Of a DNA stretch of 11,925 nt, positions 9,643 through 10,299 are shown in pieces. This stretch comes from a virus. The notes under the pieces are model-generated. The model had not been told where the DNA came from and did no database searches. It worked only from the letters and a program-made list of their open reading frames with translations. The stretch lies in the UHGV virus genome UHGV-1563677, one strand, 5' to 3'. The translations under genes were made by a program, and so were the position numbers. Within the stretch, counting starts at the first letter, position 1; the number at the start of each line of letters is the position of its first letter.

Positions 9643-9975
9643 TCAGGGTGCAGAAGGACTAAAGATAAACGTTTTCTTCACGCCTTTACACGGCCTGTCC
9701 TTCTCAAATCGCCATTTTGCCATCGCCTTTACAACCTGCTCATCAAACAGATGGTGCGGCTCTGAACGAATAAACTCAATTCGGGTGACAGTACCATCAG
9801 CACCAATATCAAACCTCACATCAACCCGTCCCTTTATATAATTTGCCGCTGCATAGGCCGGATATTGTGGTAATGCCTTAACCAACTGTCGGGGCATATC
9901 TGTTTTATGTTGCGTACAGCCCATAACCAGAGAAGACAACAAAATAATTAACGGAAGATTTCTTTTCATTTTCAT
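9643..9975 (-). CDS. Moron lipoprotein with a TonB C-terminal-domain-like region (signal peptide plus lipobox-like SLVMGC)
   Basis: Translation ...MKMKRNLPLIILLSSLVMGCTQHK...LPQYPAYAAANYIKGRVDVRFDIGADGTVTRIEFIRSEPHHLFDEQVVKAMAKWRF... The YP..A...G.V.V.F.I..DG.V......S......D..v..A...WRF pattern matches the TonB-CTD motif as recalled. Start uncertain: ATG at 9975 or 9969, or GTG at 9984; GGGGA SD at 9976-9980. AT-richer than its neighbours. Confidence 0.6.
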   Translation of the reverse strand: MKMKRNLPLIILLSSLVMGCTQHKTDMPRQLVKALPQYPAYAAANYIKGRVDVRFDIGADGTVTRIEFIRSEPHHLFDEQVVKAMAKWRFEKDRPCKGVKKTFIFSPSAP

Positions 9976-9989
9976 TCCCCGCACAGATA

Positions 9990-10006
9990 AGAATAAGTCT
10001 TATTCT
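9990..10006. promoter_or_regulatory. 17-bp palindrome AGAATAAGTCTTATTCT (8-bp arms) overlapping a putative sigma70-like promoter of the lipoprotein gene; candidate operator
   Basis: Perfect arms seen in the sequence, 15-30 nt upstream of the lipoprotein start. On the minus strand TAGAAT (plus 10002-10007) could be a -10 box, with TTGATG (plus 10027-10032) as a -35 box at 19-bp spacing. Confidence 0.4.
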
Positions 10007-10299
10007 AACAATGCCGCCCTGTCGGTCATCAATCCTCTGCTTAATGGCAACGACAATTATCCGACTTAAATCACAAATCAGACACATGACATAACAGGGC
10101 TTGCGAGGCGTCCTGTTTCTTCCACCATCGCACCGGACTGGCGACTATGAGGGGACAACGCCGCGCTCCGTTAACGCGGTAAACCCCGGTGTGTATCGTT
10201 TTTGATTATCCCCGCACACTCGCGCAGAGGAGTCTCCCTGTCGGGCTGCGGTCTCTGTTAATGAGGGAATACAGCGACGATACGGCGCATCAGCAAAAC

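Follow-up and report, generated by a model that had tools for sequence, protein, structure and literature searches.

A lambdoid prophage gene of Escherichia coli encodes a predicted outer-membrane lipoprotein with a TonB C-terminal domain, a candidate decoy of the TonB system

Results

A TonB-domain lipoprotein gene in the late region of a lambdoid prophage

We analyzed an 11,925-nucleotide stretch of viral DNA (UHGV virus genome UHGV-1563677; hereafter, the window), which represents the late region of a lambdoid Escherichia coli prophage, carried on the minus strand. Its genes follow each other in the order lysozyme (cut by the window end), small lysis open reading frames (ORFs), Rz/Rz1, a lipoprotein gene, ylcI/ynfO (on the plus strand), an HNH endonuclease gene, terS, terL, a gene for a protease–capsid fusion, the portal gene, and genes of the head–tail region. 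This study concerns the lipoprotein gene, which combines a lipoprotein signal with a C-terminal domain (CTD) of the energy transducer TonB. An earlier reading of the window, made from the sequence alone, had described it as an AT-richer prophage moron located between Rz and the HNH/terminase block and encoding a lipoprotein of about 110 amino acids; the position is confirmed here, with Rz/Rz1 on one side and ylcI (+), HNH, TerS, and TerL on the other. All features discussed below are collected in Table 1.

Table 1. Positions of the lipoprotein gene, its signals, and the neighboring genes in the window
Feature	Position	Strand	Evidence
TonB-CTD prolipoprotein coding sequence, 108 amino acids (stop codon included)	9643..9969	-	ORF list; identical PGAP coding sequence WP_000828072.1, "TonB family protein"; Pfam, NCBIfam, and PDB matches
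Lipoprotein signal peptide, residues 1–17, plus Cys18 (codon 9916–9918)	9916..9969	-	sequence; PS51257-type pattern
TonB CTD, residues 26–104, equivalent to E. coli TonB 153–231; beta3 (G-V-K-K-T-F-I-F) at its C-terminal end	9658..9894	-	ungapped phmmer alignment to 1u07, 2gsk, and 2grx; AlphaFold2 pLDDT >94; Foldseek
Shine-Dalgarno-like GGGGA, 6 nucleotides before ATG 9969	9976..9980	-	sequence
17-bp perfect palindrome, AGAATAAG-A-CTTATTCT, operator-like, overlapping the -10-like hexamer	9990..10006		palindrome search
Promoter-like site: -35-like ATGACC (10024–10029), 16-nucleotide spacer, TG-extended -10 TAGAAT (10002–10007)	10002..10029	-	consensus scan
Moron cassette: 587-bp insert, 42.8% GC, imperfect 9-bp microhomology (CGTTCGGTT / CGTCCTGTT) at the flanks	9522..10108		blastn against vB_EcoS-569R3 and BP-4795; GC content
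Rz i-spanin	10300..10767	-	phrog_13, E=7e-76
Rz1 o-spanin, embedded in Rz	10362..10547	-	phrog_3198, E=2e-31
YlcI/YnfO (DUF3950) gene; stop codon 10 nucleotides from the left edge of the insert	9312..9511	+	PGAP; phrog_949
HNH endonuclease gene, preceding terS	8904..9269	-	ORF list, PGAP, PHROG
terS	8050–8613	-	ORF list, PGAP, PHROG
terL	6392–8053	-	ORF list, PGAP, PHROG

The ORF at the locus spans positions 9643–9984 on the minus strand and offers two alternative in-frame starts, ATG 9975 and GTG 9984, upstream of ATG 9969. The latter is the start annotated by PGAP for the identical gene in E. coli WP4-W18-ESBL-09, where it yields a 108-residue protein beginning MKRNLPL, and it agrees with the Shine-Dalgarno-like motif at the appropriate place. 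All residue numbers given here are therefore counted from ATG 9969.

The N-terminus of the prolipoprotein, MKRNLPLIILLSSLVMGC, has the organization of a lipoprotein signal peptide, with the basic residues K2 and R3, a hydrophobic core, and the lipobox L-V-M-G-C18, followed by threonine at position +2 and glutamine at +3. As a criterion for lipoproteins, we used a positively charged n-region, a hydrophobic core, and the motif [LVI][ASTVIM][GAS]C within residues 15–35 (a pattern of the PROSITE PS51257 type). Fifteen of 16 family members examined pass it, the exception being P0040, which reads P-L-S-A-C at this place. The lipobox is retained across homologues of 33–97% identity, and the spacing between the cysteine and a P-x-Y-P motif is nearly constant (15–23 residues) among the 16 family members, none of which carries aspartate at position +2. 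Threonine at +2, together with the lack of Asp +2 in the homologues, predicts sorting to the outer membrane. The ORF, the lipobox, and the signal pattern thus bear out the earlier description of a lipoprotein of about 110 amino acids with a VMGC lipobox and no aspartate at +2.

The mature protein belongs to the TonB C-terminal domain family

The sequence-only reading had proposed that the mature part of the lipoprotein matches the TonB CTD, and profile searches agree on this assignment. The protein scores 55.3 bits with the Pfam family TonB_C (PF03544; cut-off 24.6, E=9e-15) and 55.1 bits with TIGR01352 (cut-off 27.1). A phmmer search of PDB sequences returned the CTDs of Salmonella and E. coli TonB as the top matches, with E-values of about 1e-15 and alignments that are ungapped over 79 residues. 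The match to the full-length TonB equivalog (NCBIfam PRK10819), at 73.6 bits against a cut-off of 315, is confined to positions 157–240 of its 249.

The structural comparison that the sequence-only reading had called for gave the same answer. In an AlphaFold2 model, the domain is predicted with a local confidence score (pLDDT) above 94, and the signal peptide and the tether have low confidence. Foldseek superimposed the model on the E. coli TonB CTD (1u07_A) with a root mean square deviation (rmsd) of 0.8 Å over 79 columns at 38% identity, giving a target-normalized TM-score of 0.85. The model also matched the TonB chains of two transporter complexes, that with BtuB (2gsk_B; rmsd 1.1 Å, target-normalized TM-score 0.91) and that with FhuA (2grx_C; rmsd 1.0 Å). 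Every significant fold match in the PDB was a TonB or FusB CTD, and the TolA-III fold was distant. A search of the viral structure library BFVD found no match to the TonB-CTD model at an E-value of 0.001 or below.

At the level of single residues, the alignment equates TonB Y163, P164, F180, F202, W213, Y215, and F230 with Y36, P37, F53, F75, W86, F88, and F103 of the lipoprotein. Apart from the proline, these TonB positions form the conserved aromatic core of the domain; the corresponding residues of the lipoprotein are mostly invariant across the family, and the beta3 strand is retained. Other positions differ. The equivalent of TonB Q160 is leucine and variable across the family, and that of R166 is tyrosine. 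The family has conserved residues of its own, reading YPxYAxAN in place of YPARAQAL and SEPQHLFD in place of SAxPANMFE. The last residue of the lipoprotein corresponds to TonB position 235, four residues short of the TonB C-terminus.

The remainder of TonB has no counterpart in the lipoprotein, which contains neither an N-terminal transmembrane anchor nor a proline-rich spacer, and in which only about 8–10 residues separate Cys18 from the domain. Because it lacks the membrane anchor and the proline-rich rod of TonB, the protein should be unable to transduce energy; and since precisely the defining N-terminal and spacer features fail, it is not a TonB energy transducer. We conclude that its mature part is a bona fide member of the TonB_C domain family, attached to a lipoprotein signal.

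The gene lies on a discrete AT-rich insert

Comparison with related phages delimits the lipoprotein gene as part of a moron cassette of 587 bp. In phage vB_EcoS-569R3, both flanks of this segment are 95–99% identical to those of the window, and ylcI is directly joined to the region downstream of Rz; in phage BP-4795, the lipoprotein gene is likewise absent, as judged by blastn. The guanine–cytosine (GC) content of the insert, 42.8%, compares with 57.9% in the structural genes and 51% in the lysis region. A discrete insert that is missing from two sister phages and is richer in AT than its surroundings is in line with the earlier moron call. The ylcI/ynfO gene (phrog_949), which lies between the moron and the HNH gene, is kept in relatives whether or not they carry the TonB-CTD gene.

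The 651 bases around the lipoprotein gene are 100% identical in three complete E. coli chromosomes and 97% identical in phages JLK-2012 and Lys8385Vzw and in four Shiga toxin 1a (Stx1a)-converting phages. In E. coli WP4-W18-ESBL-09, the prophage adjoins the trp operon and a truncated ompW gene and carries lambda-like J, lom, and tail-fiber genes.

Transcription signals around the gene

An extended -10-like element, TGtTAGAAT (10002–10010), lies 33 nucleotides upstream of ATG 9969 and, together with a -35-like hexamer, forms the promoter-like site of Table 1. The sequence block TGTyAGAATAAGAC is common to the upstream regions of the window allele and of the 72%-identical allele of phage 21 (see below), so that the element is partly kept. 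The 17-bp operator-like palindrome that overlaps the -10-like hexamer is not present upstream of the phage 21 allele. A scan for promoters found two sites against 1.8 expected from shuffled sequence, that is, no enrichment; the suggestion that the gene has its own promoter therefore stands as plausible only.

A scan for intrinsic terminators found none on either side of the gene, the hairpin of -12 kcal/mol that follows it having no U-run. Since the gene lies on the strand of the late genes and no intrinsic terminator was found after Rz, expression from the late operon is as likely as expression in the lysogen. Judged from this arrangement, the gene should be transcribed as part of the Q-antiterminated late transcript, and additional expression in the lysogen from the extended -10 promoter is possible. 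Regulation by iron through Fur was also considered and found no support: the best upstream match to a Fur box scored 12/19, a level of at least 12/19 being reached by 15 sites in the window.

Distribution and evolution of the lipoprotein family

A related gene is carried by the classical phage 21, whose CPT_21_73 is 71% identical to the window allele and is annotated as "TonB C-terminal domain protein". The phage 21-type allele also occurs in phages ev017 (LR597643.1), Perceval, and PhiR47_2, and a member with 41% identity is carried by Klebsiella phage ST13-OXA48phi12.4. In all three phage lineages, the gene is found after the lysis cassette and before cos/terminase, on the strand of the late genes; phage 21, Stx1a phages, and the Klebsiella phage share this post-lysis slot. 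Among 5426 complete E. coli genomes, 415 carry the window allele and 1225 the phage 21 allele, 1203 of the latter with at least 99% identity; in this species the gene is found only in prophages and always in the post-lysis moron slot. In viral contigs of IMG/VR, 220 matched stretches encode a relative, and an exhaustive profile-free search yielded further proteins of about 110 amino acids with the same architecture. The two E. coli alleles differ with a ratio of nonsynonymous to synonymous substitution rates (dN/dS) of 0.11, with synonymous sites near saturation.

In several database variants of the phage 21 type (P0010–P0021), the sequence beyond about residue 88 is frameshifted or unrelated, and these variants would lack beta3; some prophage copies are thus decaying.

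Outside phages, lipobox-bearing homologues with 33–51% identity are encoded on the chromosomes of Raoultella, Klebsiella, Serratia, Erwinia, and Pantoea, as found among species-representative genomes. For this search of loci we used a narrower alignment, the diverse alignment of 15 sequences being too divergent. Four Raoultella and Klebsiella genomes contain the homologue in the lacZ–lacI...yagU (DUF1440) region, Serratia grimesii has it between ycgN and dsbB, and in Erwinia it is found near araA. The homologues of Raoultella planticola and of a Pantoea metagenome-assembled genome (MAG) are located in accessory islands. A tblastn search of these loci from other genera (L005–L026) with the phage proteins of the window found no prophage context.

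One further hit, on a 418-bp contig assigned to Modestobacter excelsi (NZ_SJEX01000172.1, L013), encodes the first 67 residues at 69% identity, and is most likely a contamination of this actinobacterial assembly. In the Pantoea MAG (CBIFUL010000002.1; L015, 4873–8315), the homologue lies 1.7 kb from a gene for a pore-forming colicin (Pfam PF01024), and the same small accessory island holds, alongside the colicin, a probable immunity ORF and part of a phage integrase. We examined whether this locus links the family to TonB-dependent bacteriocins and rejected the connection, since the glycine-rich N-terminus of the colicin contains a TolB-box-like DGTGWSSE, so that it is probably Tol-dependent, and since this is a single case.

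Neighbor-joining analysis of the domain groups the lipoproteins in a clade apart from the enterobacterial TonB CTDs, with a bootstrap value of 0.61, and the E. coli phage alleles form a subclade within it. Sequence identities follow the same division: the protein is 37–41% identical to enterobacterial TonB CTDs versus 43–53% to most lipoproteins of the chromosomal type (35–53% for the whole family). These identities and the separate clade, at a bootstrap of only 0.61, disfavor the view that the 3' end of E. coli tonB was captured recently. Because of the separate clade, the phages probably acquired their gene from a family of stand-alone TonB-CTD lipoproteins that already existed, rather than by cutting it from E. 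coli tonB. Two other lipobox-bearing proteins, P0153 (152 amino acids) and P0122 (156 amino acids), have TonB_C domains that group with genuine enterobacterial TonB, for which reason lipoprotein-anchored TonB CTDs may have arisen more than once.

Other features of the window

Three other genes of the window show peculiarities of their own. terS contains a 27-bp tandem repeat (two copies with 85% match, 8117–8170). The "major capsid protein" of 645 amino acids (4391–6328) joins a Peptidase_S78 prohead protease domain (residues 48–152) to a Phage_capsid domain (residues 386–635) in one fusion. The portal gene (1918–4179) encodes 753 amino acids, compared with 861 in the otherwise approximately 100% identical prophage of E. 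coli WP4-W18-ESBL-09; by tblastn, the two portal proteins are 85% identical over 849 columns in a gapped alignment. The repeats in the C-terminal part of the portal, PRDGRDYDPDVLQ.AV.DAV, suggest a polymorphism in repeat number.

Discussion

A tethered TonB decoy as a candidate mechanism

What would a temperate phage gain from a lipid-anchored TonB CTD? We consider it the best explanation, held tentatively and at a little under an even chance, that the lipoprotein acts as a dominant-negative decoy of TonB tethered to the outer membrane. According to this proposal, signal peptidase II would cut off the signal peptide and Cys18 would be acylated, giving a mature lipoprotein of 91 residues, whose short tether would keep the TonB CTD within a few nanometers of the inner face of the outer membrane. 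As the protein has neither the transmembrane helix nor the proline-rich rod of TonB, ExbB/ExbD would be unable to energize it. The exposed beta3 edge strand would pair with TonB boxes, either those of TonB-dependent transporters loaded with ligand or those of group B colicins on their way in; instead of this, or as well, the domain would form dead-end dimers with the CTD of TonB. Because the lipoprotein could not be energized, such binding would be non-productive and competitive, and its net effect would be to damp TonB-dependent import. The lysogen would thereby gain resistance to phages of the T1/phi80 type, group B colicins, and several microcins, at the cost of slower uptake of siderophores and vitamin B12. 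The sequence-only reading had already raised, expressly as a hypothesis, a periplasm-facing mimic of the TonB CTD that blocks TonB-dependent phages or colicins; profile, structural, and comparative evidence fully bears out its description of the gene, and the functional half of its interpretation is plausible.

Several lines of background are in keeping with this proposal. At this face of the outer membrane, the TonB CTD is not known to have partners other than the TonB boxes of TonB-dependent transporters and of incoming group B colicins, and the CTD of a TonB molecule. Periplasmic fragments of TonB reportedly inhibit infection by phi80 and killing by colicin M, through competition for transporters or the formation of mixed dimers. 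The TonB box is described as pairing with beta3 of the TonB CTD by beta-augmentation (PMC11658791), and because this contact is largely backbone-mediated, the lipoprotein could offer it as well. Inhibition of TonB-dependent iron import by periplasmic TonB fragments is on record (Howard et al. 2001, J Bacteriol 183:5885, as cited in PMC9841981), and a preprint reports that Llp of phage T5, a small outer-membrane lipoprotein, reaches the periplasmic face of FhuA and blocks it (bioRxiv 10.64898/2026.03.26.714494). Several findings fit this picture: the energy-coupling parts of TonB are lacking in the lipoprotein, beta3 and the six aromatic residues are kept, the tether is short, and dominant-negative periplasmic fragments are known. 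The selective benefit would most likely lie in shielding the cell from phages, colicins, and microcins that depend on TonB, a plausible role.

A number of observations weigh against the decoy. Two TonB residues implicated in receptor contact, Q160 and R166, are, by alignment, not kept in the lipoprotein. The native receptor of phage 21 is LamB, so that exclusion is not homotypic; as this phage natively uses LamB, self-exclusion is unlikely, and any exclusion would be heterotypic. A general block of TonB would starve the lysogen of iron, and expression would for this reason have to be low, conditional, or late. The call of a promoter for the gene is without statistical support. A search with the defense models of PADLOC gave no match, the only hit being at chance level (E=0.038). 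Finally, the homologues in ordinary chromosomal loci suggest a physiological role that is not tied to phages, and the family may originally have served to modulate TonB-dependent uptake.

This last point leads to the strongest competing explanation, in which the family is a housekeeping brake or modulator of TonB-dependent uptake or signaling that acts through the same binding and might, for instance, curb the influx of iron or the import of toxic compounds in certain conditions, the phages having borrowed it and exclusion being at most a side effect. The lipobox-bearing homologues (33–51% identity) at non-phage loci speak for such a role, as does the position of the lipoproteins in a clade of their own apart from enterobacterial TonB, although the bootstrap value of this clade is just 0.61. 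In E. coli, however, the gene is confined to prophages and to their post-lysis slot, a pattern typical of genes for lysogenic conversion or exclusion, and regulatory support is missing, with 12/19 positions in the best Fur-box match; on balance we regard the housekeeping role as unlikely, if a serious contender. Somewhat less probable still is that the TonB-CTD fold serves here as a generic module for beta-augmentation or for binding of peptidoglycan or OmpA/Lpp, with a Bor-like role in the envelope or in virulence that leaves TonB transport unaffected. Such a module would agree with the presence of bor in this slot in lambda and phage 21, with the departure of the family-conserved residues from TonB (YPxYAxAN, SEPQHLFD), and with the quite different ligands bound by the related TolA-III fold. 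Yet sequence and structure both place the protein nearest to genuine TonB CTDs rather than to TolA or another fold, the aromatic core of TonB and beta3 are all kept, and the neighborhoods of the gene suggest no alternative partner.

Two further explanations carry little weight. The gene matches PHROG 1267, labeled "Rz-like spanin", with E=1e-42, and in three phage lineages it comes after the lysis genes in the same orientation, which could point to an accessory lysis protein or a protein of the spanin type. Genuine Rz and Rz1 genes (phrog_13 and phrog_3198) are nevertheless located just upstream, and in BP-4795 and vB_EcoS-569R3 this lysis cassette occurs with the gene missing. The protein itself is a globular TonB_C domain and not a proline-rich o-spanin, nor does it have the C-terminal transmembrane segment of a unimolecular spanin. 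With real Rz and Rz1 present, sister phages lacking the gene, and a domain that is TonB_C, we reject a function in lysis as very improbable; the label of PHROG 1267 is probably an annotation carry-over, which will propagate to new phage genomes. The least probable explanation of all, to which we give hardly any credence, is that the gene is an inert remnant of a piece of tonB that was once captured. The frameshifted or scrambled C-termini of some database members (P0010–P0021) would be compatible with it, but the low dN/dS of 0.11 at nearly saturated synonymous sites, the acquired and conserved lipoprotein signal, the occurrence of one allele at least 99% conserved in 1203 genomes, and a position in the tree that is not nested within E. 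coli tonB all speak against inertness.

Relation to known systems

The phage lipoprotein shares with the CTD of TonB (approximately residues 153–239 of the E. coli protein; 1u07, 1xx3, 2gsk, 2grx) the same fold to about 1 Å, 38% identity without gaps, the YP motif, the six aromatic residues, and beta3. TonB itself has a transmembrane anchor, a proline-rich spacer, and a link to ExbBD, in place of which the phage protein carries a lipoprotein signal and, as predicted, an outer-membrane tether. It also resembles the engineered periplasmic TonB fragments (Howard, Herrmann, Stratilo and Braun 2001), which likewise are periplasmic CTDs that cannot be energized, are reported to be dominant-negative on FhuA- and FecA-dependent transport, and serve as the functional precedent for the decoy proposal. 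Those fragments were made artificially from E. coli TonB itself and are soluble and overexpressed, whereas the phage protein is natural, predicted to be lipid-anchored, and 38% identical.

Among phage proteins, Llp of T5 and Cor of phi80, N15, and HK022 are also small outer-membrane lipoproteins, which act on FhuA from the periplasmic side and block phage entry. They differ from the TonB-CTD lipoprotein in having an unrelated fold, in being specific for FhuA, in acting allosterically on the plug and loops, and in excluding their own kind, while phage 21, which carries the TonB-CTD gene, uses LamB. No structure of Llp or Cor was among the listed PDB matches of the Foldseek search. Compared with Cor and Llp, the scope of the TonB-CTD lipoprotein would potentially be much broader. 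Bor (lambda, phage 21) and Iss offer a parallel of a different sort, as Bor too is an outer-membrane lipoprotein encoded by a lambdoid moron in the same slot between Rz/Rz1 and cos/terminase. There is no similarity in sequence or fold, and bor lies on the opposite strand, in contrast to the TonB-CTD gene, which is co-oriented with the late genes; phage 21 has both. Further counterparts are the chromosomal TonB_C lipoproteins of Raoultella, Klebsiella, Serratia, Erwinia, and Pantoea, which likewise have a lipobox, a short tether, a single TonB_C domain, and the same length, share the family signatures at 33–51% identity, and differ in lying outside prophages, at loci that vary between genera.

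Implications

The homology to TonB is already recognized in databases, where members are named "TonB family protein" or "TonB C-terminal domain protein". A full-text literature search returned no paper characterizing a TonB-CTD lipoprotein of phages or prophages, and the gene is not discussed in the announcement of the phage 21 genome. In our assessment, the identity and the architecture of the lipoprotein are settled, and the proposed mechanism is plausible and has experimental precedent. Testing the hypothesis would be inexpensive, as the standard laboratory phage 21 carries the gene.

A more far-reaching version of the proposal, which we put forward as a possibility that the present evidence leaves rather doubtful, is that temperate coliphages, including phage 21 and Stx1a phages, carry an outer-membrane-anchored, dominant-negative end of TonB that damps the Ton system as a whole. 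Such a protein would protect the lysogen or the late-infected cell from phages, colicins, and microcins simultaneously, and would do so by a new principle of exclusion or immunity, the mimicry of a host energy transducer instead of the masking of a single receptor, in about a quarter to a third of sequenced E. coli. A natural, minimal binder of TonB boxes tethered to the outer membrane would also lend itself to studies of the engagement between TonB and its transporters. If the lipoprotein does act as a natural TonB decoy, a single prophage gene of 327 bp would alter several traits in a large share of E. coli, lysogens of Shiga toxin phages included, namely the sensitivity to phages of the T1/phi80 type and to group B colicins and microcins, the uptake of "Trojan horse" siderophore–antibiotics, and the acquisition of iron. 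It would thus bear on host range in phage therapy, on siderophore-conjugate drugs, and on the competition through colicins and microcins in the gut.

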